36,416 nucleotides of DNA from an uncultured Spirochaetia bacterium (GCA_964418785.1 CAYQNP010000231.1:1-36416); one strand, 5' to 3'; counted from the stretch's first letter, positions 3,867-29,365 are shown. A program made the numbers and translations. Notes: generated by a model not told the origin, from the sequence alone.

Positions 3867-5249
3867 CTAAATTTTAACTTTAAAAACACCTTTTGCATTT
3901 TCAGCAAAATCCAACTTCTGCTCCCATTTTTCAAGCATACTGCTCAATTCTTTTATTTCAGACTTATAATTCTTTTTTTCAGCAAGATTATTCTTTTCCC
4001 ACGGATCGTTTTGTAAATCAAAAAGTTGAATAACAGGGTCATTCCTATAAGCAATCAACTTAAATTTATCTGTACGAATCATTCGTCCCATATCATGCAT
4101 TACTTCTGTAACAAGAAACTCTCTCCAATTAACATTTTTTCTTTCAAGAATAGGCTTTAATGAAAGTCCTTTAACATTATCTGCAGGTTTAATTCCAGCA
4201 TAATCACAAATAGTGCTGAACAAATCGAGACCTGAAACAAGATTCTTTTTATTTATTCTGTTTTTCGGGATTCTGCCGGGAAAAGATATTATTAACGGGA
4301 CTTTTACAGATTCTTCATAAAGGAAATTTTTTGTAACAGTTCTGTGTCGTGCCATTCCTTCTCCATGATCAGAAGTAAAAATTATCATTGTATTATCAGC
4401 ATATTCAGAATCGTAAATAGCATCTAATACTCTTCCTATTTCCTTATCAACTTCTTCAACCATTCTGTAATAACTCCACAAGTAATATCTCCAATTCAAT
4501 TCATTCCATTTATTAGTTTGTGCTCTTGGTATATGCGACTCTGCAGATTCTTTAAAATTAAATTTAAAATTCGGAGGCAATGGGGGGAGTTTATCAATAT
4601 CTTTAAACGGCAGATTTTCTATTTCATCTGCATTTCTTTTTATCCAATTACATATATCATGCGGCTGTAAAAAAGATACTGAGAGAAAAAACGGTTTATT
4701 ACCTTTATAATTTCTAAGAAAAGCTTCACTAACACCTGAAACACCGGAATCCCCAAGAGTACCTCTTACCCCTATTCCTGCAGGTAAAACTTTAAATCCC
4801 GGTATTTTATCCTGATATCCGTTAGGCAGATGCCATTTTCCAACATATACTGTTTCATATCCGTTTTCAGAAAGAACTTCACCTAAATTAGGAATATCTG
4901 AACGAATAGCCAGACCGTTCTTTATAACACCTGTTTCAGAACTCATCCTGCCGGTATAAATACTGCTTCGTGCAGGAGAACAAATAGGATTAGTGCTGTA
5001 TGATTCCATAAAAGTTACACCGCTTTTTTTCAATCTGTCCATATTGGGAGTATTAACATCAGAACATCCCAATGCTGATAATGTATCAAGTCCTTGCTGG
5101 TCTGTCATTATCAATACTATATTAGGTCTTTTATCCTTCTTTCCCGCAAATAAATTTTTTCTAAATTTTATATTACTTGCCATGATAGTTCCTCCGGCTA
5201 AAGATAAATTTAAAAATTCTCTTCTGGTAAATTTAAACTTTTCTTTCAT
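3867..5249 (-). CDS. Formylglycine-dependent (S1-type) sulfatase with a twin-arginine (Tat) signal peptide
   Basis: The N-terminus MKEKFKFTRREFLNLSLAGGTIMAS matches the Tat consensus S/T-RR-x-FL. It also has IVLIMTDQQG, the FGly motif C-S-P-A-R (nt 4968-4982) and GKWHL. Confidence 0.9.
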   Translation of the reverse strand: MKEKFKFTRREFLNLSLAGGTIMASNIKFRKNLFAGKKDKRPNIVLIMTDQQGLDTLSALGCSDVNTPNMDRLKKSGVTFMESYSTNPICSPARSSIYTGRMSSETGVIKNGLAIRSDIPNLGEVLSENGYETVYVGKWHLPNGYQDKIPGFKVLPAGIGVRGTLGDSGVSGVSEAFLRNYKGNKPFFLSVSFLQPHDICNWIKRNADEIENLPFKDIDKLPPLPPNFKFNFKESAESHIPRAQTNKWNELNWRYYLWSYYRMVEEVDKEIGRVLDAIYDSEYADNTMIIFTSDHGEGMARHRTVTKNFLYEESVKVPLIISFPGRIPKNRINKKNLVSGLDLFSTICDYAGIKPADNVKGLSLKPILERKNVNWREFLVTEVMHDMGRMIRTDKFKLIAYRNDPVIQLFDLQNDPWEKNNLAEKKNYKSEIKELSSMLEKWEQKLDFAENAKGVFKVKI

Positions 5250-6024: not shown

Positions 6025-7485
6025 TTAAATTTCTATACCTACTCTAACATATTGTTCTTCAGGTGCATCATTTTCTTTCATTAATTTTATCATATTTTCC
6101 AGCATTAACTTTTCTACATTTTTATCTGTTACAGGCATCATTTGAGCAGGATCTTTTTCTAAATCAAAAAGTAAATTTCCAAATCTTTTAAGATTTCTCC
6201 AATCAAAAGCAGGTATTTTCATAAGTTTACAGCCTTTAGTAAAATTAAAAGGCTCTGAAAGTTCTATATTTTGAAGTTCTTCAACAGAAAAAGAATGCTG
6301 CATATGAGCAGGCATTAAAGTATATTCAAAAAGAGGGGAACCATCGTCATTTACAGGAGCACGCATATAAACAAATTTCCCGTCCGTTATATTAATATGC
6401 CCTCCATGTACACCAAAAAGAGCATACTCTCTAACTTTTTTATCATTTTTTATAGTTTCTTTTAAACTTTTTCCCAACATTTCATCCGGAATTTTAACAT
6501 TAAAAAAATCAAGTATGGTAGGAGCAATATCTATTGTTTGAACAAGCGTACCTCTGCGTTCACCTTTAACTTTAAATTCAGGGTGATAAATAAAAAAAGG
6601 GATATTAACTATTTCATTATATAACGGCATAACAGATTTTCCGAACCAATTATGTTCTCCGAGCAAGAAACCGTGATCAGTATTAACTATTAACATAGTA
6701 TCACGCCACAAATTATATTTATCCATCAGATCAAGGACTTTCCCGAGATTTTCGTCGCACATACTAATAAGAGCAGCATTTTTATAACGAATATGGCGGA
6801 TTTCTGCATCTGATTTATCTGCTTCTTTATACTCCGGCCAATCCCACAACGGACCATTGTAGTTATGCGGATATAAATCTTCAAATTTTTTATAAGTAAA
6901 ATAAGGCTCATGGGGGTCAAAAGTTTCAATTTGTAAAAACCAGTTATCTTCGGAATGGTTTTTTTCAATAAATTCCAGACCAAGATTAAAAGTTTTATTT
7001 TGGGGGTGCAAATTTTCATTCTGCATATATATTCTATTAACCCAATCCTGTCTTGCTCTCGGTGAATTTTTATTAATATTATGTGGGATATCAATATTTC
7101 CGACAACACCTTTCCACGGATCACCTTCCTGGCCGCGGCTAATTTCCCAACTACTATATTTTGTATGATAAGTAGCACCGCCGTCTTCCCAATAGTGATA
7201 ATGATCACTTATAAGGTGAGTATAAATTCCATTATTTTTTAATATTTCCGGCATAGAATTATCGAAAGGTTCAAGGGGTCCCCAACTTCTATGCAGGAAA
7301 TTATATCTTCCCGTATGAATTTCTCTTCTTGCCGGCATACAGGGCAAACTACCGGCAAAACAGTTATCAAAAACAACAGAATTTTCAGCAAGTCTTTTAA
7401 AATTCGGAGCCACAACCCAATCATTACCATACGGCGGGAGCATATGTTTATTAAGAGAATCGAACATAACCATAATAACTTTCAT
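6025..7485 (-). CDS. Cytoplasmic Cys-type sulfatase (S1-like, alkaline-phosphatase superfamily)
   Basis: It starts directly with the metal-binding strand MKVIMVMFDSL and has no signal peptide. FGly motif C-M-P-A-R at nt 7327-7341, TDHGF motif, GGTGGTG RBS. Confidence 0.85.
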   Translation of the reverse strand: MKVIMVMFDSLNKHMLPPYGNDWVVAPNFKRLAENSVVFDNCFAGSLPCMPARREIHTGRYNFLHRSWGPLEPFDNSMPEILKNNGIYTHLISDHYHYWEDGGATYHTKYSSWEISRGQEGDPWKGVVGNIDIPHNINKNSPRARQDWVNRIYMQNENLHPQNKTFNLGLEFIEKNHSEDNWFLQIETFDPHEPYFTYKKFEDLYPHNYNGPLWDWPEYKEADKSDAEIRHIRYKNAALISMCDENLGKVLDLMDKYNLWRDTMLIVNTDHGFLLGEHNWFGKSVMPLYNEIVNIPFFIYHPEFKVKGERRGTLVQTIDIAPTILDFFNVKIPDEMLGKSLKETIKNDKKVREYALFGVHGGHINITDGKFVYMRAPVNDDGSPLFEYTLMPAHMQHSFSVEELQNIELSEPFNFTKGCKLMKIPAFDWRNLKRFGNLLFDLEKDPAQMMPVTDKNVEKLMLENMIKLMKENDAPEEQYVRVGIEI

Positions 7486-8679: not shown

Positions 8680-9600
8680 CTAAAAACTGTATTTTACTGT
8701 AGTCTGTAATGACGAACCAAGTTCACCTAATGAGATCCAGGCTGCATCAAAATAAAATTGTTTTATTTTCAACCCTAATCCTGCTGTCAACCCGTTAATC
8801 CAGTTTAAATAATTAACCCCTGTATCATAACTATAACCTGCTCTAATATAAACCATATTTTTATACACATACTCTATTCCTATATTAATAAAAGGTGTTT
8901 GATATAAAATATAATCAATACCACCTAAAATTTTCACATAGCGGATGTCGTTTATTTTTATTCTATACATAATTCCCGAATTTACTGAAACAGGCATTAT
9001 TTCATTATCTTCAACAAAAACACCTGCTGTTCCTATATTTTTCAGCACTAAACCTAAAATCAAATTTTTATCCTTCTGCAAAATAACTTTACTTCCTATA
9101 TCTGCTCCCACAGCGATTGTATTTTCATAAAATAATTTCTGATAATACATTTTAAAATTAATACCCAGCTCAATATTCATTTTTAATTTAAAACCGTACC
9201 CTACGGTGTATCCGGCAGAATACGAATTAAATATGTTTTCAATAACACCTTCTGTATTTCTGCTCTCCAATTCTCCCAGATCCACATAAGATAAACTCAC
9301 TCCTGCAGTTCCCTGTTTAAACCAATTTACCGGAATAGAATAACCTGCATAAAAGCAATTAATTTCTGAAATCCATTTATTAAAACTCAGCAAAACATTA
9401 TTTTTAACAGTTTCACTTAATCCGGCAGGATTCCAATAAAGACTGCTCAAATCATCAACTTCTGCAGCAACTGCGCCGGCAAGACTACCTCCTTTAGCAT
9501 CAGGGTTAATATTTAAAAAAAATGCCCCTGTTTCGCCGGCTCCAAAACCAGTATTAACTACCCCAAGCAAAAAAACAATAATTATTAATATCTTTCTCAT
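8680..9600 (-). CDS. PorV/PorQ-family outer-membrane beta-barrel (T9SS-associated)
   Basis: Signal peptide, then GAFFLNINPDAKGGSLAGAVAAEVDDLSSLYWNPAGLS, the characteristic N-terminal motif of PorV/PorQ-family barrels. Alternating beta-strand pattern and a C-terminal aromatic residue (KYSF). Confidence 0.65.
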   Translation of the reverse strand: MRKILIIIVFLLGVVNTGFGAGETGAFFLNINPDAKGGSLAGAVAAEVDDLSSLYWNPAGLSETVKNNVLLSFNKWISEINCFYAGYSIPVNWFKQGTAGVSLSYVDLGELESRNTEGVIENIFNSYSAGYTVGYGFKLKMNIELGINFKMYYQKLFYENTIAVGADIGSKVILQKDKNLILGLVLKNIGTAGVFVEDNEIMPVSVNSGIMYRIKINDIRYVKILGGIDYILYQTPFINIGIEYVYKNMVYIRAGYSYDTGVNYLNWINGLTAGLGLKIKQFYFDAAWISLGELGSSLQTTVKYSF

Positions 9601-9602
9601 TT

Positions 9603-12600
9603 CTATTTTAACACCCCGAGTTTCCCCGGTTTTTTACTTACAACTTTATTGTCTATACGCATTAAAATCAAATATAATCCGCTTGCCACTACTCGATTGT
9701 TTTTATTCCTCCCGTTCCATAATGCAGTATAATCTTTTCCTTTGACTGTTCCTACATAATTTCCGGTTATAGTATATATATCAAAAAACACATTTGCTGT
9801 AACTTTCGCATTATACTTTATTACTATATTATCCTGTTTATTAATATTAAACGGATTAGGATACACAATGAAACTGTTTTCCGGAATATCCGGTTTTTCA
9901 TTTTCATATACTATCCCGTCACTCTTAAATTTACTTATATTCCCTGCTCTATCCATTAACCAGATTTTAACTGTTTTATTTCCATATCCCTCGCTTAATA
10001 CATATTCTACATTAAAATTTTTCTTTATTCCTGTAAACTGCCAACCTGCTGAATTAACTTCCGGTGTTTCTGTGTTCTCACCTATATAATATGCTATTAC
10101 TTCTGTAACATTTGTAACACCTACTGCAATATTAACTGTTTTATCATAAGTTATCTGCTTATTATCTTCTATAATGATATATTCTGCAGAACCCGGTATT
10201 TTCGTATCAAGAATATTAATATTTGTAACTTTATTTAAAAGTCCTGTTTTATTAGATAAATAAGTTACTAAAATATTAGTACCTTCTTTTAAAAGTTTTA
10301 CTGTCATCTGAGTATCTGTGCTCCATCCGCTATCCCAACCAGTAATATCATTAGTTAAAACAAAAACACGATAATAATGCGAAAAACCGTTTATACTTAA
10401 CCATTTAACATTTGTATTATTACTGTACAATTCATTTAACCTATTATTAGTAATACCGTCTGTATCAATAACTTTAATAACAGCATACGGTGTACTTGTA
10501 TTTATAACAAAACTGTTTGTTTTACTCCATTCCCCCAAATTATTTAATTTATCTATTGCTCTAATTCTCCAATAATAAACATTTGTACTCATATTTATCA
10601 CTGTATAATTAGTACTGCATAAAACAACATTCGAGTAAATAACTGAAAAATCATTTAAAAGACCTATCTGCAACTGATAATTACTTATTCCGGAACCACT
10701 ATCAAAGGAAGACTTCCAGGTGAAATTTATTTTTTTATTTGTTGTCCATAAATTATTTTCAGGCATTAAAGGAACCGCTTTGTCAGGTCCTGTTTTATCA
10801 ATCCAGAAATAAGCAGACTCTGAAGTAAACCAGCTAACAGTTCCGATTTTATGCGTTAGTACTCTCCAATAATTTTTCCCTTCGTTTAAGTTTGCTGCCG
10901 GTATATATTCTGTAGCTGTTGTTACAAAACTCACTTCAACATCAGTAAATAAAGATGAATTCCCTATTTGAATCTTATTAGTATCTCCGGTTACTTCTTT
11001 ACTCCATACAAATAAAGGTTTTGAATTTGTAGTATACACTCCCAGCGGCTGATATAACTTTACAACCGGAACATTAGTATTTATTATGACCGGATAAATT
11101 GAACTAATATTTGTATTTCCTGCAAAATCCTCAACAAATACGGTCCAATGATTCGTACTGTTTTTCCCAAACTTAAAATTAAAATAGTTAACATTTAAGT
11201 TAGTAACAATTTCAAATCCGTCCGCAATATTATTATTTGTATCTATTTTAACCTTATAAAATTTAATACCGCTCACACTATCTGTACCATTCCATTGAAA
11301 ATCTACTGTAATATCCGGGGCAATTCTATTGCTTCCCGGGAATGTCAGGGAAATATCCGGCGGCACGGTATCTAATGTTATTTTCCGCACAGAACTATTA
11401 CTGCTTACATTTTCTGCATAATCTACACTTCTTACCCGCCAATACCAGATCCCGTCGCCTAAAACAGGGCTTACTGTCCAATTGGTTAAATTTATATTTG
11501 TGCTTCTTTTTATATTAATAAAATTATTATCATTACTGCTCAATTCAACAACATAATAAGCAATACCACTGCCGCCACTATCACTGCTTTTATTCCATTT
11601 AAGATTAATTGCATAATTATTGGTGATAAAATTGCTTACCGGATAAGTCAAAGAAACTATTTCAGGAGGAGTTGTGTCTATTCTAAATAAATTAGTCAGA
11701 CTCCATTTTCCCAAATTGCTTATACTATCTACTCCTCTTACCCGCCAATACCAGATCCCGTCAGATAAACTAAAAGGAATAATAAAATTTGTATTTGAAG
11801 TACTTATATTAAATTTAATATTATTAAAATTACTATTACTGGAAATTTCTACATTATAAAAACTTAACCCGCTTAATTTATCTATTCCGGTTTGCCACGA
11901 AAATAACGGCTGAGATATATTATAGATACTATTGTCTGCAGGTGTTTTTAAATGTATAATCTCAGGACCTGATCTGTCAATCCAGAACTTTCCAATACTT
12001 GAAGCATACCAATTTGTAGTACCCTCTTTTAAAGTATAAATTTTCCAAAAATTAGTTCCTTCTCTTAATGATATTGCCGGAATATAATTTGTATTAGTTG
12101 TACTATCTTCTAAAATACTATCTACAAACGAAAAATTTGAACTTATTATTATTTTATTTGTACTGCCGTTATCAGTACGGCTCCACTTAAAAATCGGTTT
12201 AAGATTGGTAATATAAACATTAACAGGATAATACAACTCAGATACAGGTAAATTTGTATCTATAATAATAGTCTGTATACTGCTCACATTACTGTTTCCG
12301 GCATTATCTTCTATTTTTACTTTCCAATGATTTGTGCTGCATCGTGCAAAAGTATAATAATATTCATTAGATGTTATATTATGAGTAAACTCAAAACCAT
12401 CAGAGATATTATTATTAGTATCAATCATTATAATATAATCATATATTCCGCTTCGATCGTCACTGCCATTCCAACTAAATTTTACTGTAAGTTCACCGGA
12501 ATAATTATTATCCGGCGGCAACAGAGCATTTATATTTGGGTTTACTGTATCAATTCCAACTTTCCATTCAACACTGACATCACTATAATTATTTGCTCTG

Positions 12601-13316
12601 TCTTTTGATATGACTTTCCACCACCATATTCCGTCACTCAACTGATTGGTTCTTACAAAATTTGTTTTATTTACAACACTCCTGGTATTTGTCATACCTA
12701 TATTGGTTATAAGGATTACTGTATAATTTGTTACACCGCTAAAATTATCGGAAGACCTGTTCCATTTAAAAACAGGGTTATGATTCTGCCAGGAATCATT
12801 TAAAGGCGATACTAAAATCGGCTGGGAAGGTTTTTCTATATCTACCATAAAGTTCCATGTACTGCTTTCAATTCCAATATTTCCTGCTCTATCAACACCT
12901 TTAACTTTCCAATACCACATTCCATTACTTAATGTAAACGCCGGAATCCATGTAGTACTATTATTAGTTATTACATATTCCGAGTTAAAATTATTCGAAC
13001 TTAACTCAAGTACATAAAAATCTATACCGCTTAAATTATCATTCCCACTCCACGAAAAAACAGGTGTATTATTATTTATATTATTATTACTTACAGGCAA
13101 ATTTAATAGGACCTTATTCGGGGCAGTATTGTCTACAATTAATTTCCGATATTCACTCCAATTTCCGTAATTACTCATATTATCAACTGCTCTTACTCTC
13201 CAATACCATATACCTTCACTAATGCCCGGAGATACTGTCCAATTTGTAGTTATTAAATTATAATTACTTCTTGCCACAGTTGAAAAAATTGAATCATTAC
13301 TACTAACTTCAATCAC
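9603..13316 (-). CDS. C-terminal part of a giant repeat-rich surface protein with a T9SS C-terminal sorting domain; no signal peptide of its own
   Basis: The track start is a GTG in the middle of a repeat module. Homology to the repeat (TGFDSGSGINHYVIEV) continues in frame up to the TGA at 13365-13367. There are ten modules of about 95-100 aa with the W-Y-W-[RK]-V-x-[AGS]-[VI]-D-x-x-x-N signature. It ends in YPNPFN...GLYLILMRI...GKLGVLK. Confidence 0.8.
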   Translation of the reverse strand: MIEVSSNDSIFSTVARSNYNLITTNWTVSPGISEGIWYWRVRAVDNMSNYGNWSEYRKLIVDNTAPNKVLLNLPVSNNNINNNTPVFSWSGNDNLSGIDFYVLELSSNNFNSEYVITNNSTTWIPAFTLSNGMWYWKVKGVDRAGNIGIESSTWNFMVDIEKPSQPILVSPLNDSWQNHNPVFKWNRSSDNFSGVTNYTVILITNIGMTNTRSVVNKTNFVRTNQLSDGIWWWKVISKDRANNYSDVSVEWKVGIDTVNPNINALLPPDNNYSGELTVKFSWNGSDDRSGIYDYIIMIDTNNNISDGFEFTHNITSNEYYYTFARCSTNHWKVKIEDNAGNSNVSSIQTIIIDTNLPVSELYYPVNVYITNLKPIFKWSRTDNGSTNKIIISSNFSFVDSILEDSTTNTNYIPAISLREGTNFWKIYTLKEGTTNWYASSIGKFWIDRSGPEIIHLKTPADNSIYNISQPLFSWQTGIDKLSGLSFYNVEISSNSNFNNIKFNISTSNTNFIIPFSLSDGIWYWRVRGVDSISNLGKWSLTNLFRIDTTPPEIVSLTYPVSNFITNNYAINLKWNKSSDSGGSGIAYYVVELSSNDNNFINIKRSTNINLTNWTVSPVLGDGIWYWRVRSVDYAENVSSNSSVRKITLDTVPPDISLTFPGSNRIAPDITVDFQWNGTDSVSGIKFYKVKIDTNNNIADGFEIVTNLNVNYFNFKFGKNSTNHWTVFVEDFAGNTNISSIYPVIINTNVPVVKLYQPLGVYTTNSKPLFVWSKEVTGDTNKIQIGNSSLFTDVEVSFVTTATEYIPAANLNEGKNYWRVLTHKIGTVSWFTSESAYFWIDKTGPDKAVPLMPENNLWTTNKKINFTWKSSFDSGSGISNYQLQIGLLNDFSVIYSNVVLCSTNYTVINMSTNVYYWRIRAIDKLNNLGEWSKTNSFVINTSTPYAVIKVIDTDGITNNRLNELYSNNTNVKWLSINGFSHYYRVFVLTNDITGWDSGWSTDTQMTVKLLKEGTNILVTYLSNKTGLLNKVTNINILDTKIPGSAEYIIIEDNKQITYDKTVNIAVGVTNVTEVIAYYIGENTETPEVNSAGWQFTGIKKNFNVEYVLSEGYGNKTVKIWLMDRAGNISKFKSDGIVYENEKPDIPENSFIVYPNPFNINKQDNIVIKYNAKVTANVFFDIYTITGNYVGTVKGKDYTALWNGRNKNNRVVASGLYLILMRIDNKVVSKKPGKLGVLK
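9606..9869 (-). other. T9SS type-A / FlgD-Ig-like C-terminal sorting domain of the giant protein
   Basis: IVYPNPFNINKQDNIVIKYN...FFDIYTITGNYV...WNGRNKNNRVVASGLYLILMRIDN...KLGVLK is the classic Por secretion tail pattern. It is paralogous to the tail at 35290-35565. Confidence 0.7.
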
Positions 13317-13364
13317 ATAATGATTTATTCCGCTGCCGGAATCGAATCCTGTTAAAAATACAAA
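10488..13364 (-). repeat. Tandem array of about ten beta-sandwich (FN3/Ig-like) coding modules with a higher-order duplication (approximate bounds)
   Basis: The signature recurs as WYWRVRAVD, WYWKVKGVD, WWWKVISKD, NHWKVKIED, NFWKIYTLK, WYWRVRGVD, WYWRVRSVD, NHWTVFVED, NYWRVLTHK and YYWRIRAID. The two-module block at about 11976-12551 is repeated at about 10794-11372. Confidence 0.75.
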
Positions 13365-14732
13365 TCACACCAGACTATTAGTTACCGCAGAATTACTCAC
13401 ATGTGATGATAAATTTACTATTGCAGGCAGCGCGGTATCAAGGATATGGCTGCCTTTTAATGCTGTTGAACTAATATTATTAAAATTATCTTTCAGCCAA
13501 ACATATACTGTATGCTCTCCGTCACCACCTGTTAAAACAAAATTTGTAGGTTTACTGCTTATCCATCTGCTATCATTCCATAAAGGCTGATTACTTTGCG
13601 TTTCTGAAATTAAATAATAAAAAGCTCCTATCTCATTTGTTATTGAAACATTTATATTCGTATTATCTGTATAATTAGTATCTCCTGAAGTTATATCACT
13701 TAACCTGATTTCTCCACCATAAGGTTTAATCGTATCTATACCGCCAACAATATTCGTATAATATTTTAAACTCACATTATTACTTATATCTTTAACACCT
13801 ATACGGACATATACAATATTAGTTTCAATATTCAAATCAGTATCGACTTTCCAGACATATGTAAAAATATTTCCGTTTGTAGTAAAACTTAGCGGTTCAG
13901 ATGAATTACTTATATGCGAACTATTATAAGCCATATCGAACCAATTATTTCTATCAAAAGAGTATTCACAATTTTCAGGTACATACAGACATAAATCATT
14001 ATCATCATCATAGCCAGTATATTTTATTATAACATTACCGGAATTATCTTTTAACTGATAAGCAGAGATATACTGTAAATATGGTCTTTGTCTATGAACC
14101 AACAATCTTATATATCCGTTATCATTAAAATTTATATTTGTATTAGTAGCCGGGGATACAATACCCGGGTGAAAATACAGACCTATGTCTCCGCCATATT
14201 TTATTCCGTTAAAACCAACATATGCAACAGCATTCGTATTACTTCCTGATTGAACCTGTGCTCCCACCAATATATCCAAATATTGATTTCTATAAGCATT
14301 ACTTATAAAAAATACTATTCGGAAATTAGTAACGCCAAAACTTGAAACAGGACCGATATTAGTTATGACTGTTCCATCTAATGTTTCAAAATGATATTTA
14401 TATCCTCCTGTTAAACCATTTGTAGCGGTTTTAACATTAATAATTCTCAACCGAAACAGTTCTTCATGATTTCCGTAATTTTTTAATGTATTTGTAAGAT
14501 AAATATTAGAGAAAATATCAACGATTTTATCAGTTGCTATAGTTACAAATTTACCGCCGAAATTACTGTCAACAGTATTCGACGCATAAGCAGAAACAAC
14601 TCCCTGCCCTTCAGAGGAACAGTAAAAAACTGTTTTAATCAGAGAACCCGCCGGTGTATTTGTATTTCCATTTGCCCTACCTGTCAATATGGAAAATAAA
14701 CATATTATTATTAATAGAGTTTTTACTCTCAT
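13365..14732 (-). CDS. N-terminal part (with signal peptide) of the same giant surface protein, ended by an in-frame TGA
   Basis: MRVKTLLIIICLFSILTGRANG is a signal peptide. The C-terminal domain GDGEHTVYVWLKDNFNNIS is paralogous to GYGNKTVKIWLMDRAGNIS in the downstream ORF. It is in the same reading frame as 9603-13316, separated only by the TGA plus 16 sense codons. Confidence 0.8.
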   Translation of the reverse strand: MRVKTLLIIICLFSILTGRANGNTNTPAGSLIKTVFYCSSEGQGVVSAYASNTVDSNFGGKFVTIATDKIVDIFSNIYLTNTLKNYGNHEELFRLRIINVKTATNGLTGGYKYHFETLDGTVITNIGPVSSFGVTNFRIVFFISNAYRNQYLDILVGAQVQSGSNTNAVAYVGFNGIKYGGDIGLYFHPGIVSPATNTNINFNDNGYIRLLVHRQRPYLQYISAYQLKDNSGNVIIKYTGYDDDNDLCLYVPENCEYSFDRNNWFDMAYNSSHISNSSEPLSFTTNGNIFTYVWKVDTDLNIETNIVYVRIGVKDISNNVSLKYYTNIVGGIDTIKPYGGEIRLSDITSGDTNYTDNTNINVSITNEIGAFYYLISETQSNQPLWNDSRWISSKPTNFVLTGGDGEHTVYVWLKDNFNNISSTALKGSHILDTALPAIVNLSSHVSNSAVTNSLV

Positions 14733-15852: not shown

Positions 15853-17415
15853 TTAAATACCTGCTGCTTTAGGCCACCATTCAATATAATCAGTTCCGAT
15901 TTTTTTTGTCTCTTCAACAAGTTTTTTAAATAATTCTGTACGATAAAAATCGTTTTCCTCTATAGGGAACGGATGCTTAAAAGAATCAGTATATTTTTTC
16001 AATTTTTTTCTCATTATATCAATTATATCTTTATATGCATCATTAAAAGCGAGATTTCTTTTTTCTTCCGGATCTTCATCAAGATTATACAATTCATCAC
16101 CGTCAAAATAGCCTGGATAATGTTCTATGGCTATATTCATTTGCGGCTGCATTCTTATATTTATATGATTAGGAGCTTCTTTAAGTTCTCCAGATTTCAT
16201 TTTTTCAATAATAGTCTTAGGGTATCTTAAAGCAATATACTTCCAATTTTTCCACAGCACAGCGCGCGCCCAGCCAAATTCAAAATACAACTCTTCGTGA
16301 AGCTCTTTTTCTCTGCCGAATAAAACCGGCAACATACTTTTCCCGTCTAATTTCATTTCTTTAGGCGGAACAATATTACAGGCATCAAACAGTGTAGGAA
16401 GAAAATCTATATTTTGTACCCGGGCATGACAAACGGTTTTAGGCTCTATTTTACCGGGCCATTTCATTAGCATTGGGATATGTGTTCCCGCATAATAACA
16501 TGTCCCCTTTCCGGGCTCTGTATTGTGGTCTGTATTCCAGAAAAATATTGTATTATCTTCAACTCCCATTTCCTTTAATTTATTAAGCAGAACTCCGACC
16601 AGATCATCCATCCATATCATTCCGACTGTATTATGATTATATGGTAACCCGTATTTTTCCAGTCTTTCGTGTATTTTTTTTCTATCCGGCATACCTGTAC
16701 CGGACAGGTCCATTCTTCCAGCCTGTGTCAACGATACATCCTGCTCGTAAGATTTTTCATGCGGAGGTCCGTGGAATGTAGTTGTTGCAATATATAATAT
16801 AAACGGTTCATCTGTATTAACATTCGAAAGAAAATCCAATGCACCTTTTGCCATCCAATCAAGATTATGATGCTGTAACTTCTTGACCGGAAAAGCTTCG
16901 TTATTATCCCAGGTAATACTTGCAGCATACTGAAAACCACCGTCCTTTTTTACTCTCTCAACAAGTACTTGCTGAAACTCTTTTAATTTAGCATCAACTT
17001 CCGGGTCATCCGGATCGGAATCAGGGTCTAATTCCGGAAGCGGTAAATATTTCATAGGCCAGCCTGTATGCCATTTTCCGACATATCCTGTTTGATACCC
17101 GTTTTCAGACATAACCCGGCCTAAACTCCACATATTCTCATTTACAACTGCATTCCAATGAACATTATACGGTTCGTCTGCAGGATTGGATTTTAAAAAA
17201 TATTCATCTTCACATCTGCCGACATATTGCCCTGTTAAATATGAATATCTGCTTGCTGTACAAACTGAAGAAGCACAATGCATATTTTCAAATTTTACCC
17301 CTTCTTCTGCAATAGAATCAATATTCGGAGTTTTAATCTTTGAACCATACGCTCCTATTAATGAAAAATCTGTATCATCACTAATAAAACAGACAACATT
17401 TGGTCTCTTACCCAT
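15853..17415 (-). CDS. Cytoplasmic Cys-type sulfatase
   Basis: MGKRPNVVCFISDD start with no signal peptide. FGly motif C-T-A-S-R at nt 17248-17262, GKWH and TDHN motifs. Confidence 0.85.
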   Translation of the reverse strand: MGKRPNVVCFISDDTDFSLIGAYGSKIKTPNIDSIAEEGVKFENMHCASSVCTASRYSYLTGQYVGRCEDEYFLKSNPADEPYNVHWNAVVNENMWSLGRVMSENGYQTGYVGKWHTGWPMKYLPLPELDPDSDPDDPEVDAKLKEFQQVLVERVKKDGGFQYAASITWDNNEAFPVKKLQHHNLDWMAKGALDFLSNVNTDEPFILYIATTTFHGPPHEKSYEQDVSLTQAGRMDLSGTGMPDRKKIHERLEKYGLPYNHNTVGMIWMDDLVGVLLNKLKEMGVEDNTIFFWNTDHNTEPGKGTCYYAGTHIPMLMKWPGKIEPKTVCHARVQNIDFLPTLFDACNIVPPKEMKLDGKSMLPVLFGREKELHEELYFEFGWARAVLWKNWKYIALRYPKTIIEKMKSGELKEAPNHINIRMQPQMNIAIEHYPGYFDGDELYNLDEDPEEKRNLAFNDAYKDIIDIMRKKLKKYTDSFKHPFPIEENDFYRTELFKKLVEETKKIGTDYIEWWPKAAGI

Positions 17416-17429
17416 ATCGAACTCCTTTA

Positions 17430-18893
17430 TTATATTAAATTATAAATTTTCCTCTTATGATCAGGCCAACGAACACTGTAATATACTGATTTAGAATGTT
17501 TATATGCTCCGTTAAAATACGAACTCTCTGCTATCCAGTTTAATAATGTTTCTTTTAATTCTTCTTTTATTTTACTATACTTCTTTATATTCCACAAATT
17601 TTTTAACTCATACGGATCTTTTTTCATATCATATAATTCTCCATATTCCTGAGAAATATAATATACAAGTTTATATTTTTCTGAACGAATCATAACTATG
17701 TAATTATCCTCAGTAAAAACATACTCCGGTAAATTTTTTGTTGAGCCATTATCCAGGTATTCATTTATAGGTTCAGCTTCTATATAACTTGGTATTTTAA
17801 CTCCGGCATAACTTAAAATCGTAGGACCGATATTCATTAAAGATATAAGTTTATCTGTTCGTTTTATTCTGTTGTTTCGATTTTTTCTAAAGTCTTTTAT
17901 TATAAGAGGAACTCTAATCATAGAATCATACATAAGCCATTTATACGGCAACTTATGATCACCTAAGCTATCACCATGATCAGAAGTAAATATTACAATA
18001 CTATTTTTTAGGAATCCTCTTTTTTCAAGTGCTTTTAAGATACCGCCAATTTTTTCATCGATTAAAGTAATATTAGCATAATAATGTTTTCTCATTTTAG
18101 TAATATCAGAAATATCTGCATTATACATATCAATAACAGAATCATTTTTCATTTGAGAGAATCTCTTTTGATGTCCGATATGTTCCGGAGGTTTATTATT
18201 TAACTCACCATCCTGCATCACAGGTGCGGGAATATTTTTATTGTCATACATTTTTAAAAATCTTTCAGGCGGGTCATAAGGTTCATGAGGTCCTGGAAAA
18301 CCTATCTGCAGAAAAAACGGCTCTTTCCCATTATAATTATTTATCCAATCAACAGCTTTATTACCTACAAAACTATCAATGTGATCCTCTTCATCATACT
18401 CCCATACAACAGAGTTTAACATCTGTTTCCAACCGGGATATTTATAACGCCTTTCAACAGGCCGAGATATACCTTTGCTATTAAGATATTCAGACCATTT
18501 ATCCGGCTTTAAACCAAATTTTTCAAATTCCTGACATTTATTTTCAACAACAAATCTTTCGTGAAAGACATCATCTGCATACATAGGAGACAAATGCATT
18601 TTTCCTATATTCGCAGTATAATATCCGTTTTTTCCAAGATCGCGTACCCAGATATTCTGATGAGCCCATCTGTTAAAACTATAAACACCTGTATTATGAG
18701 GATACATACCGGTAAACATAGCTGCACGGGAAGATATACAGGTACTGCCGGCAGCAAAACAAGAAGTAAAAGTAATTCCACCTTTACTTAAATTATCCAG
18801 ATTCGGCGTAATCATATGTTTAAAACCATTACTATTAATAGTATCCCATCTTTGCTGATCTGTCATTATTAATATAATATTAGGTTTTTTCAT
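17430..18893 (-). CDS. Cytoplasmic Cys-type sulfatase with the variant motif C-I-S-S-R
   Basis: MKKPNIILIMTDQQRWD start with no signal peptide. The motif at nt 18726-18740 translates as C-I-S-S-R. GKMHL and SDHGD motifs. Confidence 0.85.
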   Translation of the reverse strand: MKKPNIILIMTDQQRWDTINSNGFKHMITPNLDNLSKGGITFTSCFAAGSTCISSRAAMFTGMYPHNTGVYSFNRWAHQNIWVRDLGKNGYYTANIGKMHLSPMYADDVFHERFVVENKCQEFEKFGLKPDKWSEYLNSKGISRPVERRYKYPGWKQMLNSVVWEYDEEDHIDSFVGNKAVDWINNYNGKEPFFLQIGFPGPHEPYDPPERFLKMYDNKNIPAPVMQDGELNNKPPEHIGHQKRFSQMKNDSVIDMYNADISDITKMRKHYYANITLIDEKIGGILKALEKRGFLKNSIVIFTSDHGDSLGDHKLPYKWLMYDSMIRVPLIIKDFRKNRNNRIKRTDKLISLMNIGPTILSYAGVKIPSYIEAEPINEYLDNGSTKNLPEYVFTEDNYIVMIRSEKYKLVYYISQEYGELYDMKKDPYELKNLWNIKKYSKIKEELKETLLNWIAESSYFNGAYKHSKSVYYSVRWPDHKRKIYNLI

Positions 18894-18907: not shown

Positions 18908-20404
18908 CTACTTAATAAACTCATATTTTCCGCTTCTAATTTTTTCAATAGGCATACCCTTATTTTTTTCCAATAATTCAGCATACACTTCTCTATCAGA
19001 ATTCCGCAGCCGTTCTATATATCCGTTTAAATTATTTCTGGTATGAAAAGGTCCGCCTTCCCTGATTACATTCCACATAGGATCTACATTATAATTAGAA
19101 GACTGCATCATTTCAGTATGCCACTCTTCTAAAAGCGCTAATCCTTCTTTCACAACTTCAGGATATTTAGCTGCTACATCATTTAATAAATGAAAATCTT
19201 CTTTTATATTATATAACATTATTTCAGGATAGGGTTTAAGACCTGTGTCATAGGTTCTCATTAAAATCCAATCACCAAAAACAACAGAGCGTTGACAAAT
19301 CCATGCACCCTGACTAACCACTAAATAATCTCTACCTTTATCTATGCTGTTTTTTATATTTTCAGCAAAACTTTTTCCATCCCATAATTTAGGTATTCTT
19401 AATCCTGCAAGCTCGAGAATAGTTGCCATTAAATCCGCCTGATAAAATAACGAATTAAATACTTTTTTTGTTTTCAATCCCGGCCATCTTACTATATACG
19501 GAATTCTTGCAACTATATTATCTGCTGTCTGATGATCACCATATACTCCGAGTTCACCCTGCGATTCTCCATGATCGGAACTTATTATAATAACAGTATC
19601 ATCCAATACACCTTTTTCATCCAGAATTTTTATTATTTTTCCAAAAGCATCATCAGCATACTTAATTCCTGTATCATAGCCGTCTATCCATTTTTTATAA
19701 TCCGCCATTGTTTTAATTTCTTTAGGTATTCTGGGATATTTACCGAACCCGTCTGCAGTTCCGTTCCATCCTAAATCTCTCGGAGAATGAGGGCCATAAC
19801 CGTTATAGTTTCTTTTAAGAACATCTTCTGTATGCCATTCAGCAAGTGGTTCGTTTTCAAACGGATTTCCATATTCAAGCGGTACTCTATACGGAGTATG
19901 AGGGTCCCAGACATTTATGTGTAAAAACCAATTATCATTCTCTGCATTTTCATTCAACCATTTATCAGCATAGACCATAATTTCATCGGCAGTTTCCTGC
20001 CCGCCTTTGCCCGGATTATACATTTCTTTAAATCCGTTATAAAACCACCAGGCACTATGACGCTCGGCAAACGGACTTATAGAAACTGTATTATATCCTG
20101 CTTCTTTAAAAACAGCCGGCCAATGAGCTGCATCAGGAGACTGTCTGAAACTTCGTGATATACCCTCTTTTTTAGGGTCCGCATCTTCACCTCCATGATT
20201 AATCACACCTGTATGAATTCCAAATCTGCCTGTAAACGATGCACTTCGAGAAGGCAAACACGGAGTATCTGATGCATAACAATTATCAAATCGTATTCCC
20301 TCTTCTGCAATTCTGTCTATATTCGGCGATGTATTTCTATGATATCCATAACAGCCCAGATGATCTGCCCGTAATGTGTCTATGTCAAAATATAATACTC
20401 GCAT
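18908..20404 (-). CDS. Cytoplasmic Cys-type sulfatase
   Basis: MRVLYFDIDTLRADHLG start with no signal peptide. FGly motif C-L-P-S-R at nt 20246-20260, SDHGES motif, GGGAGG RBS. Confidence 0.85.
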   Translation of the reverse strand: MRVLYFDIDTLRADHLGCYGYHRNTSPNIDRIAEEGIRFDNCYASDTPCLPSRSASFTGRFGIHTGVINHGGEDADPKKEGISRSFRQSPDAAHWPAVFKEAGYNTVSISPFAERHSAWWFYNGFKEMYNPGKGGQETADEIMVYADKWLNENAENDNWFLHINVWDPHTPYRVPLEYGNPFENEPLAEWHTEDVLKRNYNGYGPHSPRDLGWNGTADGFGKYPRIPKEIKTMADYKKWIDGYDTGIKYADDAFGKIIKILDEKGVLDDTVIIISSDHGESQGELGVYGDHQTADNIVARIPYIVRWPGLKTKKVFNSLFYQADLMATILELAGLRIPKLWDGKSFAENIKNSIDKGRDYLVVSQGAWICQRSVVFGDWILMRTYDTGLKPYPEIMLYNIKEDFHLLNDVAAKYPEVVKEGLALLEEWHTEMMQSSNYNVDPMWNVIREGGPFHTRNNLNGYIERLRNSDREVYAELLEKNKGMPIEKIRSGKYEFIK

Positions 20405-20423: not shown

Positions 20424-22082
20424 TTATTTAACTTTTTTCAATTCTTTAATAAAATCTTTAGTATAAAAATATTGTAATGCATGCTTTTCAAATGCTTCTA
20501 ATAACATTTTTTTTCTTAAAGTTAGACTTAATTTTTCTTCTTGTGTTATTTTTTTCCTTAAATTTCCAATAAAAATCTGACTTCTCTGCATTTCATATTT
20601 AAATGTATTTCTATTTATATTTTTTAAGCCTTCCTGTAATTCCGAATATATAAATTTTCTATAATTTTTAAAACTATTATTAAAATATTCTATAGGATTT
20701 TTTTTCTTTTCAATAATGATTGTTTCCAGGCTCTCCAGCATTCTTGCCATAGAAGCACTTTTCCAGATCCCGCTGAAAAAAGGTGTTGGAATAAGAGGAT
20801 TTCCTTTAAGATTCGGCTTTGCATATTTTAACAAACCTTTATATTCTGCTTTTTTTACTACCGGAGCAAATTTACAATAACTCGATATTAAAAGATTTAT
20901 TTTATACGATGTTAAAAATTTTAAAAAATCCAGTGCAAGGTCAAAATTTTTAGATGCTTTCGGAATACCAAATTTTGACCCTTTATCGGTGTCTGCTTCT
21001 GCTATATCACCTGTAAAATACTTGTAATATCTGTAATTTTTATCTATTACAGGAATTCTTATAACTGCAACATTAAAGTCAGCGTTTTTAAAAATAGGCG
21101 ATATATCCCATGTTCCGTCTAAATAAAACACAGCTTTTTTAGTATAAAAAAGATATGCTGCTTGTTCGCTATCCATTGCATTAAATCCTTCTGCAAAATA
21201 ATTCCCCATTTCACTCATAATATCAACAAATCCGTATAACCTATTTTTCTCCACTTTTCCTTCTCTATATGCCTTCAAAATATCTGCAGGGCGAACATCC
21301 GCATCATAATAACGGCCATATAAATCATTTAATATACCGTTCATCTGACTAAAATAATTTCTATGGAAAAACCATAACATTTTTCTGCTTATCCCGCGAC
21401 CAACTATAGGTATAATTATTTTATGTTCTTTCTTAGCATAATCTTTTATAGTTTTACAACTGTCAAACCAATCAGATATCGTAGTGGGAGCTTTATCCTT
21501 GCCGGTTATCTGCTTTAACAAATCAAGATTCACAAAAATTCTATCATAATGAACAAACACCTTTATACCAAAATATTCTGAATAGTTTTTATCAAGCATA
21601 GATTTCATTCCGTCTAATATTGTATCTTTCCAGGGCATTCCCTCTAATACAGTTCCTTTATTATAAGGATTAACTTTTCCAATATAAGCAGATAAATGTC
21701 TCATATACTGATACTGAATATTAGGAGAACCGGCAAGTTGAATTATATCAACAGGATTACCGCCTACCAACTGAGTTAAATACCATTGGCGATAGCCTCT
21801 ACTTGGAATAATACTTTGAATAACTTTTACCTTTATACCCTGTTTTGCCTTCATTTCTTCATACAATTTTATTGCTGCATCAAATCCTTCTTTAACACCG
21901 TCTTCTGTATGCCAATGAGCAAAATTTATTACTTTAACATCCGACTCAAAAACCGAGCCTTTATTACTATTAAATATATATATATACAACACTGCATAAA
22001 AATAAACTATCCCGGCGAATAAAAGCCCGAATATAGTTTTTAAATCTTGACTGTTATTTTTTTTAATCTTCATCATTTTCAT
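20424..22082 (-). CDS. ABC transporter extracellular solute-binding protein (family 1, CUT1-like), N-terminally membrane-anchored
   Basis: Preferred start is the ATG at 22082 (GAGGTG 7 nt upstream). The track start at 22109 overlaps the GH3 stop. It has a hydrophobic anchor IFGLLFAGIVYFYAVLYIYIF with no lipobox Cys, an SBP-like alpha/beta core and an extra C-terminal helical tail of about 100 aa. Confidence 0.7.
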   Translation of the reverse strand: MKMMKIKKNNSQDLKTIFGLLFAGIVYFYAVLYIYIFNSNKGSVFESDVKVINFAHWHTEDGVKEGFDAAIKLYEEMKAKQGIKVKVIQSIIPSRGYRQWYLTQLVGGNPVDIIQLAGSPNIQYQYMRHLSAYIGKVNPYNKGTVLEGMPWKDTILDGMKSMLDKNYSEYFGIKVFVHYDRIFVNLDLLKQITGKDKAPTTISDWFDSCKTIKDYAKKEHKIIIPIVGRGISRKMLWFFHRNYFSQMNGILNDLYGRYYDADVRPADILKAYREGKVEKNRLYGFVDIMSEMGNYFAEGFNAMDSEQAAYLFYTKKAVFYLDGTWDISPIFKNADFNVAVIRIPVIDKNYRYYKYFTGDIAEADTDKGSKFGIPKASKNFDLALDFLKFLTSYKINLLISSYCKFAPVVKKAEYKGLLKYAKPNLKGNPLIPTPFFSGIWKSASMARMLESLETIIIEKKKNPIEYFNNSFKNYRKFIYSELQEGLKNINRNTFKYEMQRSQIFIGNLRKKITQEEKLSLTLRKKMLLEAFEKHALQYFYTKDFIKELKKVK

Positions 22083-22105
22083 AATTTCACCTCGCTCTAT
22101 ATATT

Positions 22106-23686
22106 TCATTTAATAAATTCTTTCTTTAAAGGCTGTTCACCTGTAATACCTTTCATAACTCGTTCAAGTGTATATTCTATACTTCCATAAGTATTTATAA
22201 CTGTATCCATTAAAACATCATATTCAAAATGGACAAAAGGGTGGAAATGAGCAACATAAATAACAGGGGTACCAAGTCTCATCCAGCCCTGCATCATACT
22301 TCTCGATACATTCCCGTGTAATCTTATAACATTCGTTCCAAATGCAGGTTTATTTCCTATTGAACAGATTATTAAATCAAACTCTTTATTATAAATTCTA
22401 TCAAAAAACGAATTTCCGTGTCCAGGATTTATCAACTCCGTAACATTATCAGAATACTTCTGCATAACTTTTGTAAAAGAAACATATAATTCCTCTTCAT
22501 TACTGTAATTATTCGTTAATATAAGATGAAGGATACGCGTATTTTTATTAATTTTAAACGGTATTATATTTGCTCTGTCTCTAACAATAGAAACGCTGTT
22601 ATCTACTATTTTTCTTGAAATTTCTTCATGTTTATTTTTATTAAAATTTATATTGTCTTTTAATTCATCATTAAAAAAGCCCAGCATATTTTTTAAAGAC
22701 ACTATTTTTTCAGCTCGATTTTTCAAAGTTTCTATTTTTAAAAAACCTGAATCAATTAATCTTTTAAACTCATCATAAAAAGCCTGATTTAATCGTGGAA
22801 AGAGGATCATATCTCCGCCGTATTCAAGAAAAGCAGCAGCTGCCTTATAATAATTCATATACCCGCTCATACCCGACATATTGATAGCATCCGATATTAT
22901 TAAGCCTTTAAAACCCAACTCTTCCTTTAATAATTTATTTAAGATTTTTTTTGACAAAGTTGCCGGAGGATAGAGATTAAAAAATTCATCTTTTTCGTCA
23001 TAATCAGGAAAAGCAATATGACCGGGCATAACAGCCATTACACCTGCATCAATTAAATCTTTAAAAACTTTCCCGGATTTTTCATCCCATTCTTCTTTTT
23101 TTAATGAATTTTGAGAAATTGTTAAATGCTGATCAAAGATATCAAACCCTTCACCCGGAAAATGTTTTAAAGTTGCCATTAAACCATTATCCTGAAGTCC
23201 TTTCATATATGCTTTTGTTATCTTTATAACCTGTTCAGCCGACCTGCCTGCAGAACGGATGCTAACCATAGGACTTTCAATTTTCCCGATTATATCAACA
23301 CACGGAGACAAAGTCCAGTTAAAGCCCAATTCAACACTTTCCAGAGCAGCGGCCTTGCCCATTTCATATGCAAGATTTTCATCATCAGCAGAACTGCATG
23401 CCAACATATACGGAAATATTGTAGAGCCTTTTATTACTGTACCCGGTCCATTTTCTATATCTCCTACTATAAACGGAGGAATTTTACTCTTATCTTTAAC
23501 TATTTTTATTTTTTCTTCGAGCTCTTTCTTTTCAGCAGGATGAAAAAACATTGCTCCATAATAACCAAGGGAATCATAATCACCGGGCATTGAATGTGCA
23601 CATACAACTTGATTAATAAGTTCTTCAAGACCCATATTTTCTACTATTTCTTTTGCAAATTCCGTTACTTTAATTTCAAATTTCAT
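22106..23686 (-). CDS. Cytoplasmic GH3 glycoside hydrolase (NagZ/beta-glucosidase-like)
   Basis: KHFPGEG...DQH and GLIISDAINMSGM (nucleophile Asp region) are GH3 N-domain signatures. No signal peptide. Confidence 0.75.
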   Translation of the reverse strand: MKFEIKVTEFAKEIVENMGLEELINQVVCAHSMPGDYDSLGYYGAMFFHPAEKKELEEKIKIVKDKSKIPPFIVGDIENGPGTVIKGSTIFPYMLACSSADDENLAYEMGKAAALESVELGFNWTLSPCVDIIGKIESPMVSIRSAGRSAEQVIKITKAYMKGLQDNGLMATLKHFPGEGFDIFDQHLTISQNSLKKEEWDEKSGKVFKDLIDAGVMAVMPGHIAFPDYDEKDEFFNLYPPATLSKKILNKLLKEELGFKGLIISDAINMSGMSGYMNYYKAAAAFLEYGGDMILFPRLNQAFYDEFKRLIDSGFLKIETLKNRAEKIVSLKNMLGFFNDELKDNINFNKNKHEEISRKIVDNSVSIVRDRANIIPFKINKNTRILHLILTNNYSNEEELYVSFTKVMQKYSDNVTELINPGHGNSFFDRIYNKEFDLIICSIGNKPAFGTNVIRLHGNVSRSMMQGWMRLGTPVIYVAHFHPFVHFEYDVLMDTVINTYGSIEYTLERVMKGITGEQPLKKEFIK

Positions 23687-23687
23687 C

Positions 23688-26126: not shown

Positions 26127-26136
26127 ATTTTCTCCT

Positions 26137-27585: not shown

Positions 27586-27595
27586 ACTTTTTTCC

Positions 27596-28429
27596 TTATT
27601 CTTTTAATGCACCTTCTCCAAGACCTCTTATAAAAGCTCTCATACCGAAAAAGAAAAGAATAACCAACGGTAATGCAGCAATAGTATATCCTGCCATTAA
27701 TTCGCCCCATTGTTTGGTATATTCACCTTCCATATGTAACAATGCAACAGAAATAAGATGTTTATGACTATCTCTAATCATTATTAAAGAAGCTACAAAT
27801 CTATTCCACTGATTTATTATTCGCAAAACAAGCAGAGTTCCTATAATAGGCATACTTAACGGTATTACAACATAACGGATCTGCTGGAGTGGTGAACATC
27901 CGTCAATAGAAGCAGCATCGAACAGATCTTTTGGGATCTCTTCTATAAAATTTTTTAAAACAAAGATAGTAAAAGCCTGCCCGCTTGATATACCGAGAAG
28001 TATTAATGCCCAATGAGAATTATACAGATGTATAGAAGTAATAAGTTTAAAAGTCGGGACCATATTAGCCACACCGGGATACATCATTAAAATCAAAAAA
28101 ATATAAAAAAGGAAATTAGCACCAGGGACATGCTTATACCTGGCAAAGAAAAAAGCACCCATTACTGAAAACATTAACATCAAAACAACAGTTGTCAGCG
28201 AAACAAATATAGAATTAAAAATATTTGATTTAAGTTTATCCCATGCTTTAGAATAATTTTCAAAATGATAAGGTGCTTCAGGAAGCCAGGGATTCCTTGC
28301 AAACTGTTGATTATCCTTTAAAGATATATTTAACATTAAATAGATAGGCATTAATGCAGCAATAAGAATCATCCATAATATAATATGTTTTATTAATTCT
28401 TTTACTTTTCTTTTTCTTTTTTCATTCAT
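27596..28429 (-). CDS. ABC sugar transporter permease (MalG/CUT1 type)
   Basis: Six-TM pattern with the EAA loop DAASIDGCSPLQQIRYVVIPLSMP. Confidence 0.85.
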   Translation of the reverse strand: MNEKRKRKVKELIKHIILWMILIAALMPIYLMLNISLKDNQQFARNPWLPEAPYHFENYSKAWDKLKSNIFNSIFVSLTTVVLMLMFSVMGAFFFARYKHVPGANFLFYIFLILMMYPGVANMVPTFKLITSIHLYNSHWALILLGISSGQAFTIFVLKNFIEEIPKDLFDAASIDGCSPLQQIRYVVIPLSMPIIGTLLVLRIINQWNRFVASLIMIRDSHKHLISVALLHMEGEYTKQWGELMAGYTIAALPLVILFFFGMRAFIRGLGEGALKE

Positions 28430-28446
28430 AATACTTCTCCTTAATT

Positions 28447-29346: not shown

Positions 29347-29365
29347 AATAAACACCTCTTATTAT

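Follow-up and report, generated by a model that had tools for sequence, protein, structure and literature searches.

We analyzed a 36,416-nucleotide stretch of DNA from an uncultured Spirochaetia bacterium (GCA_964418785.1, CAYQNP010000231.1:1-36416; hereafter the window) in which one in-frame TGA, at positions 13365-13367 on the minus strand, interrupts a gene for a giant candidate type IX secretion system (T9SS) cargo protein. The two open reading frames (ORFs) on either side of this stop are, with strong support, halves of one gene. We consider the break to be probably a recent nonsense allele, which would make the gene in the sampled population a young pseudogene or a loss-of-function allele, and not a programmed recoding site.

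A single TGA divides one large surface protein gene

Translation of 9603-14732 (minus strand) gives 1710 codons ending in TAG, and the only internal stop is the TGA at codon 456 of the 1709-codon frame, followed by a T. The upstream part, ORF A (13365-14732, minus strand), starts with ATG and encodes 455 amino acids (aa) comprising a signal peptide, an N-terminal domain, a middle domain, an immunoglobulin (Ig)-like domain, and the first ~25 residues of a fibronectin type III (FN3) module. Beyond the stop, the same frame remains open on the minus strand from 13364 down to 9603 (1253 codons plus the TAG) and encodes the rest of FN3 module 1, nine further FN3 modules, an Ig-like domain, and a C-terminal sorting domain (CTD). 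The window has a GC content of only 31.5%, and in such AT-rich sequence an open frame of this length is far beyond what chance would produce. The downstream part is listed as ORF B (9603-13316, minus strand), a GTG-initiated, 1237-aa ORF in the same frame as ORF A that was also called as a protein (P0154) by the source's gene caller. The codons around the stop read AGT CTG GTG TGA TTT GTA TTT TTA ACA GGA TTC GAT TCC GGC AGC GGA ATA, so that the junction peptide is ...TNSLV*FVFLTGFDSGSGINHYVIEVSSND, or TNSLV-x-FVFLTGFDSGSGINHYVIEVSSNDSIFSTVAR (beginning TNSLV-x-FVFLTGF) when read across the stop codon. The two halves also have a motif in common, GGDGEHTVYVWLKDNFNNIS in ORF A and EGYGNKTVKIWLMDRAGNIS in ORF B. 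Our translation agrees with an initial annotation of this DNA on the ORF coordinates, the shared frame, the junction peptide, the shared motif, and the site of a hairpin discussed below. A compensated frameshift was considered and rejected; by eye, the +1 and +2 frames near the stop match the FN3 consensus no better and terminate at once.

The export and sorting signals are found at opposite ends of the joined frame. A Sec-type signal peptide (MRVKTLLIIICLFSILTGRANG; 14667-14732, minus strand) was called by inspection and Kyte-Doolittle hydropathy (12-residue windows, mean of >2.2) and not with a dedicated predictor; residues 3 to 18 supply the only windows exceeding this mean in the entire 1709-aa product. 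At the other end, the C-terminal 100 aa (9606-9905, minus strand) match the T9SS type A sorting domain (TIGR04183/Por_Secre_tail) at 26.9 bits (cutoff, 23; E = 3.5e-6). T9SS substrates are exported through Sec by means of an N-terminal signal peptide, recognized by their CTD, and handed over to a PorV-type shuttle (PMC12618676, PMC5445135). As assembled, the signal peptide belongs to ORF A and the CTD to the frame past the TGA, and these are separate products. Judged by its sequence, the protein would thus count as a T9SS type A cargo on the strength of its CTD, and on the strength of its signal peptide only if the halves are joined. We looked for a second point of entry in the downstream frame; none of the ATG, GTG, or TTG starts checked after the stop leads into a signal-peptide leader, and the 200 residues past the stop contain no hydrophobic segment. 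The GTG at 13316 lacks a Shine-Dalgarno-like site, and AGGAGG precedes many genes on the contig.

The stop lies within an FN3 domain

Cut at recurring [ILV][DN]xxxP boundaries, the joined frame resolves into ten modules of ~100 residues each (residues 431 to 1415). The TGA falls in module 1 (residues 431 to 538; 13119-13442, minus strand), which aligns along its full length with the nine intact paralogous modules and is 45% identical to the one at residues 1018 to 1125. The stop column is ~25 residues into the module, three residues ahead of the conserved Trp of an F-x-W motif (Phe in module 1), and it is variable among the paralogs (V, V, K, I, L, N, D, L, N). For an intact module, AlphaFold2 gave a model of high confidence (pLDDT, 92; pTM, 0.84) from an alignment of the window's ten modules, and the best matches of this model in the Protein Data Bank (PDB) are FN3 domains, including those of titin, FNDC3A, Robo3, and Bacillus circulans chitinase A1. 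In this model the stop column is residue 26, in the strand at residues 25 to 30 that bears the hallmark Trp position, so that ORF A would break off after the first two short FN3 strands and leave the rest of the domain to the next frame.

Homologs are encoded by unbroken genes next to PorV/PorQ-family genes

We searched ORF A with HMMER against 1.84 billion representative proteins and obtained 737 matches, nearly all of them to the Ig-like domain only (residues ~330 to 455). The unique N-terminal part was matched by three proteins (P0013, P0044, and P0110), and a further homolog, P0155, surfaced separately in the search with ORF B. By BLASTP, the fused frame aligns to the 2,746-aa P0013 in a single high-scoring segment pair (residues 10 to 634 against 1922 to 2536; 35% identity; E = 6e-97). 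This pair has no gap over the last 60 residues ahead of the stop and the first 30 beyond it and places a Thr (in DITFEW) opposite the stop. The corresponding residues in P0155 and P0110 are Leu and Tyr. P0110 (1,131 aa) and P0155 (1,316 aa) each combine, within a single ORF, a signal peptide with the same N-terminal domain, FN3 modules, and a CTD. Their N-terminal domains begin right after the signal peptide (FMTNTPATS and FVTNTPAGS, respectively, compared with NTNTPAGS in the window), and their CTDs, which end in ...RKVVVK and ...RKVMVK, score 24.3 and 36.1 bits against TIGR04183. A signal peptide and a CTD likewise share a single product in P0013 and P0158. The premature stop of the window gene thus lies inside a domain that is continuous in its homologs.

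The genomic setting of the homologs is also shared. In four loci (L001, L003, L004, and L006), an unbroken cargo gene has a PorV/PorQ-family gene immediately downstream (NF033709, 84 to 114 bits), and in the window an outer membrane protein gene of this family (8680-9600, minus strand; 147.5 bits; cutoff, 90) is directly downstream of the interrupted gene; its product is 28% identical to the L001 counterpart. L001 comes from a metagenome-assembled genome (MAG) labeled Brevinema andersonii (DYKD01000008.1), L003 is from Logan SRR22746113, and L004 and L006 are both on contig JBMXQI010000058.1 of GCA_053937925.1. No orthologue closer than ~35% identity was found in the databases searched, and hence none above 50% on which conservation of the stop could be judged.

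These lines of evidence converge on one gene: the stop is inside an FN3 domain, the alignment to P0013 crosses it without a gap, the homologs are unbroken with PorV/PorQ synteny, and the downstream frame has no leader-bearing start. The proposal in the initial annotation of one gene running from signal peptide to T9SS tail is accordingly borne out by the module alignment, the FN3 model, P0013, and the four single-ORF cargo loci, and the orthologue comparison that it called for turned up only single ORFs, none of them split in two with a second signal peptide. Two separate genes, one for a 455-aa secreted protein and another for a 1237-aa protein starting at GTG 13316, would agree with the ORF list, in which both appear, and with the gene call for the second. 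We regard this arrangement as very improbable, given that the boundary would fall inside a domain, that the GTG, unlike the starts of many genes here, is without a Shine-Dalgarno-like site, that the homologs are all single ORFs, and that the second product would have a T9SS tail without a signal peptide, even though Sec export is required of T9SS substrates (PMC12618676). The appropriate annotation for ORF A and ORF B is a single, disrupted gene.

The N-terminal domain (residues ~23 to 230; 14043-14666, minus strand) carries the motifs TNTPAG, KNxGNH[DE][DE], and YGGDIG and is common to P0155, P0110, and P0044, where it immediately follows the signal peptides. It has no match in Pfam or NCBIfam, and among the 1.84 billion representatives we found it only in P0110 and P0044, along with a diverged copy inside P0013; rescans of the contig collections with a profile of the domain returned only L001 and a 1.9-kb fragment (L002). 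It constitutes a rare, uncharacterized domain family. The rare cargo family that carries it, whose genes each come with a PorV/PorQ-like gene of their own, may merit separate study for this pairing.

Several features of the related loci stand on their own. The four PorV/PorQ-family proteins outside the window (L001, 13312-14595; L003, 13953-15194; L004, 14875-16089; L006, 18253-19551) bear a C-terminal tetratricopeptide repeat (TPR) extension; a TPR plus OmpA protein then comes next in both L004 and L006. One cargo-PorV/PorQ locus is in the spirochete-labeled MAG, although reviews call the T9SS specific to Bacteroidota/FCB; a literature search on the T9SS in Brevinema found nothing relevant. 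The GCA_053937925.1 genome has low GC content (31 to 35%), and one of its contigs (JBMXQI010000058.1; 58 kb) holds at least two giant cargo genes that have a CTD tail and a PorV-like partner, with three more giant genes (1,604 to 1,808 aa) adjoining them. Genes of glycoside hydrolase (GH) families GH94 and GH3 are neighbors there, as they are in the window. Identity between the window GH3 and its counterpart in this P0013-bearing genome is only 29%, so that this genome is not a close relative.

TGA is a normal stop codon in the window

TGA terminates five of the 23 other complete genes on the contig (low coordinates 5246, 7557, 14734, 22106, and 35287), and in each of them the next stop follows within 2 to 18 codons. 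The initial annotation had described these terminators as sensibly positioned, and the back-up stops agree with that description. The LacI-family and GDSL proteins stop where their Pfam models stop, and Trp is encoded by TGG throughout, 45 times in ORF B alone. The TGA at codon 456 is the only one in frame across the contig's genes, and it occupies a variable column that is not a Trp or Gly position. Translation of TGA as an amino acid, as in genetic codes 4 and 25, has nothing beyond this lone codon to recommend it, is opposed by all of the above, and was rejected as having a negligible probability.

Origin and age of the stop

In two of the paralogous modules, the stop column is encoded by TTA in the same TTA-TTT context (CCG TTA TTT TCG TGG and CCT TTA TTT GTA TGG, compared with GTG TGA TTT GTA TTT in the disrupted module), and P0155 also has Leu at this column. 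Since two paralogs use TTA there, the most simply envisaged origin would be a change from TTA (Leu) to TGA through one T-to-G substitution; AGA, GGA, TCA, TGG, TGT/C, and CGA are equally one base from TGA.

The 1253 codons beyond the stop contain no second stop and no frameshift. Of all single-base substitutions in ORF B, 4.7% create a stop, and if the frame were evolving neutrally, a second stop would be >95% probable beyond 0.017 substitutions per site. This leaves three possibilities: a very recent event, one that is not real, or continued selection on the downstream part. For a real stop in a neutral frame, the disruption is young, with a neutral divergence of under about 1.7%.

Three observations weigh against a recent nonsense allele. 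First, the undecayed 1253 codons fit equally well with an intact gene in which the stop is an error and with continued translation of the downstream part by readthrough. Second, no second contig from the same population was found in the protein, genome, or metagenome contig collections that could speak against a base-call or consensus error. Third, a hairpin of about -9.9 kcal/mol, as stable as is found in just ~3% of 66-nucleotide (nt) spans, lies 18 to 22 nt after the stop.

The first two bear on whether the TGA is a sequencing, consensus, or assembly error, in which case the gene would be intact and the TGA a wrong call or a minority allele carried into the consensus. A single base change from any of the codons named above would suffice, there is exactly one lesion, and this contig alone in the collections carries these proteins: scans of the genome and metagenome contig collections with a junction profile gave no match, a word-index search with ORF A returned only itself, one with the junction profile recovered only itself and one 520-aa fragment, and an exact look-up in the gene-position index gave no entry for ORF A. 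On the other hand, the assembly looks clean. The 23 other genes tile the contig unbroken, and for several of them the match to a Pfam model spans its full length, which points to a low error rate, and at a stop-making rate of ~4.7%, one nonsense error would imply some twenty substitution errors over the 3.8 kb of ORF B. Repeat-driven misassembly is unlikely because the modules are at most 80% identical at the DNA level over 64 nt and so offer no long near-identical repeats for a chimeric join, and a misjoin would not be expected to give an in-frame stop within a colinear module. We therefore rate an error as a considerably less likely explanation than a nonsense mutation, albeit one with more weight than any other alternative. 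Among the options listed in the initial annotation, a nonsense mutation is thus the most likely and an error comes after it, while site-specific readthrough, considered in the next section, was not borne out.

If the stop is indeed present in the DNA, the consequences may be pictured as follows. The ancestral product would have been ~1709 aa long, with a signal peptide, N-terminal and middle domains, an Ig-like domain, ten FN3 modules, a second Ig-like domain, and a T9SS CTD. After a single base substitution created a TGA in the first FN3 module, ribosomes would halt after residue 455, and the expected product would be a Sec-exported periplasmic fragment with an FN3 stub and no sorting tail. 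The remaining 1253 codons, with neither a signal peptide nor a credible start, would not be productively expressed save through background leakage at the UGA. With the tail deprived of Sec export and the head of sorting, the cargo function would be lost. Genes for large surface proteins are commonly lost under pressure from phages, predators, or resources, and a real stop would offer a snapshot of the very recent loss of such a protein in an uncultivated low-GC glycan degrader. If the stop is an error, its value would be in assembly quality control.

Readthrough and selenocysteine insertion

The hairpin GATT-CG-ATTCCG-GCAG-CGGAAT-AA-AATC (13321-13348, minus strand) lies 18 to 22 nt past the stop, and its 6-bp core, ATTCCG-GCAG-CGGAAT (13327-13342), is 22 nt past it and overlaps the codons of the DSGSGI motif. 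The initial annotation was correct as to the site and this overlap, but the stability of the structure is not significant in its 80-nt context: the 80 nt from the UGA fold at -13.7 kcal/mol, compared with -11.9 ± 2.6 kcal/mol for shuffled sequences (z = -0.68), and an equally good fold is reached by 38 of 200 shuffles. Taken with its 4-bp extension, the hairpin (about -9.9 kcal/mol) is matched by 0.9% of 36-nt windows on the strand. As a post hoc observation this is weak. The hairpin is not formed by the other DSGSGI-encoding modules and is absent at the equivalent sites of L001, L003, and L006. A scan of the window against Rfam matched no family.

Functional readthrough, in which a near-cognate tRNA decodes the UGA, perhaps with help from the hairpin, and a small or regulated amount of full-length protein is made beside the 455-aa product, would draw on the fully intact downstream frame, on a hairpin in the top ~1% of 36-nt windows, and on background bacterial UGA readthrough of about 1e-3 to 1e-2, which is higher under stress (PMC10057733). 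We judge it improbable. None of the four full-length homologs or nine paralogous modules has a stop at this site, the 80-nt fold is ordinary and an equally stable hairpin occurs in ~3% of 66-nt spans, and the hairpin, largely dictated by the DSGSGI codons, is missing from the homologous loci. The base after the stop is a U, which reportedly makes for a strong termination context in Escherichia coli; the natural TGA stops in the window are followed by A (four) or G (one). The site-specific readthrough proposed at the outset accordingly finds no support. Through background leakage a trickle of full-length protein is possible, which would not amount to a programmed mechanism. Readthrough at a useful rate, aided by the hairpin or by stress and yielding mostly the 455-aa periplasmic fragment plus a small, tunable amount of the 1709-aa surface protein, is slightly more improbable still. 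If true, it would be a bacterial chromosomal case of regulated UGA readthrough controlling the display of a giant adhesin or glycan-binding protein, and it is only on this unlikely reading that the site would be of wider interest.

Insertion of selenocysteine at the UGA, with the hairpin acting as a bacterial selenocysteine insertion sequence (SECIS), has an even slimmer chance of being correct. The hairpin loop begins with G ~28 nt downstream of the UGA, and a loose bacterial SECIS geometry would fit such a loop at this distance. The aligned column, however, is V, V, K, I, L, N, D, L, N in the nine modules and T, L, Y in P0013, P0155, and P0110, with no Cys or redox motif; selenocysteine is unsupported because no Cys aligns with the stop and because the site is in a structural beta-strand of the FN3 fold. 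A tRNA scan of the window found none, hence no selenocysteine tRNA, and the lack of an Rfam match applies here as well.

Genomic neighborhood

The interrupted gene and its PorV/PorQ-family neighbor are embedded in a putative sulfated-glycan utilization locus with six sulfatases, an ABC importer, GH94, GH3, and GH10 enzymes, a TauE sulfite exporter, TatC, and a LacI-family regulator. This setting suggests that the protein may have served a degrader of sulfated polysaccharides as a surface factor for glycan binding or adhesion. Domain matches revealed no T9SS components in the 36-kb window besides the PorV/PorQ-family gene.

The six sulfatase genes (3867-5249, 6025-7485, 15853-17415, 17430-18893, 18908-20404, and 26137-27585) lie within 36 kb. 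Five of their products begin at the sulfatase domain without a leader and so appear cytoplasmic, and the one at 3867-5249 has a twin-arginine-like leader (TRREFLNLSLAGG); TatC is encoded at 248-1000. We saw no sulfatase maturase in the window. The ABC sugar importer comprises a substrate-binding protein (20424-22109) and two permeases (27596-28429 and 28447-29355), and besides the importer the regions 20424-29355 and 33037-33972 encode GH3, a phosphorylase of family GH94, and a TauE/SafE sulfite exporter, a gene content that suggests uptake of sulfated oligosaccharides followed by their intracellular desulfation and phosphorolysis.

A further gene (35287-36416) encodes a C-terminal sorting tail very similar to that of the interrupted gene (...IYLIMIKVNDKMAMLKPKKIGVIR; FlgD_ig, 28.2 bits). 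We considered it as a second interrupted gene and rejected this, because its frame is open to the contig edge and runs off it.

Comparison with known systems

The window gene can be set against four known kinds of system. Programmed readthrough, familiar from viral genes of the gag-pol type and rare in bacteria, likewise involves a UGA in frame, a long stretch of open frame after it, and a nearby hairpin; in the window, the stop is not conserved in relatives, the downstream structure lacks both significance and conservation, and U is the fourth base. Bacterial selenoprotein genes also have a UGA followed within ~30 nt by a hairpin, whereas the window site has no Cys-containing homologs, falls in a structural FN3 strand, and has no selenocysteine machinery to be seen in the window.

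The joined frame resembles T9SS type A cargo of Bacteroidota, such as the Porphyromonas gingivalis gingipains and the SprB/RemA-type adhesins of Flavobacterium with their PorV shuttle, in having a Sec signal, repeats, a CTD, and a PorV/PorQ neighbor (PMC12618676, PMC5445135). The sorting domain of such cargo is a C-terminal beta-sandwich of ~70 to 100 aa, and the window CTD scores above the TIGR04183 cutoff. The window gene differs in being broken by a stop as assembled and in having its closest organism-labeled homolog in a MAG labeled Brevinema andersonii (Spirochaetota) and not in Bacteroidota. It also differs in that the window genes use Shine-Dalgarno sites and that a separate PorV-like gene, often TPR-tailed, adjoins each cargo gene of the homologous loci.

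The interruption itself is most like the young nonsense pseudogenes or loss-of-function alleles of large bacterial surface and adhesin genes, which share with it a lone premature stop in a long, repeat-rich gene that is intact in homologs elsewhere; the window gene differs in its freedom from a second lesion, which makes the event very recent or not real. We found no positive evidence for recoding, and the event is another instance of this well-known kind.

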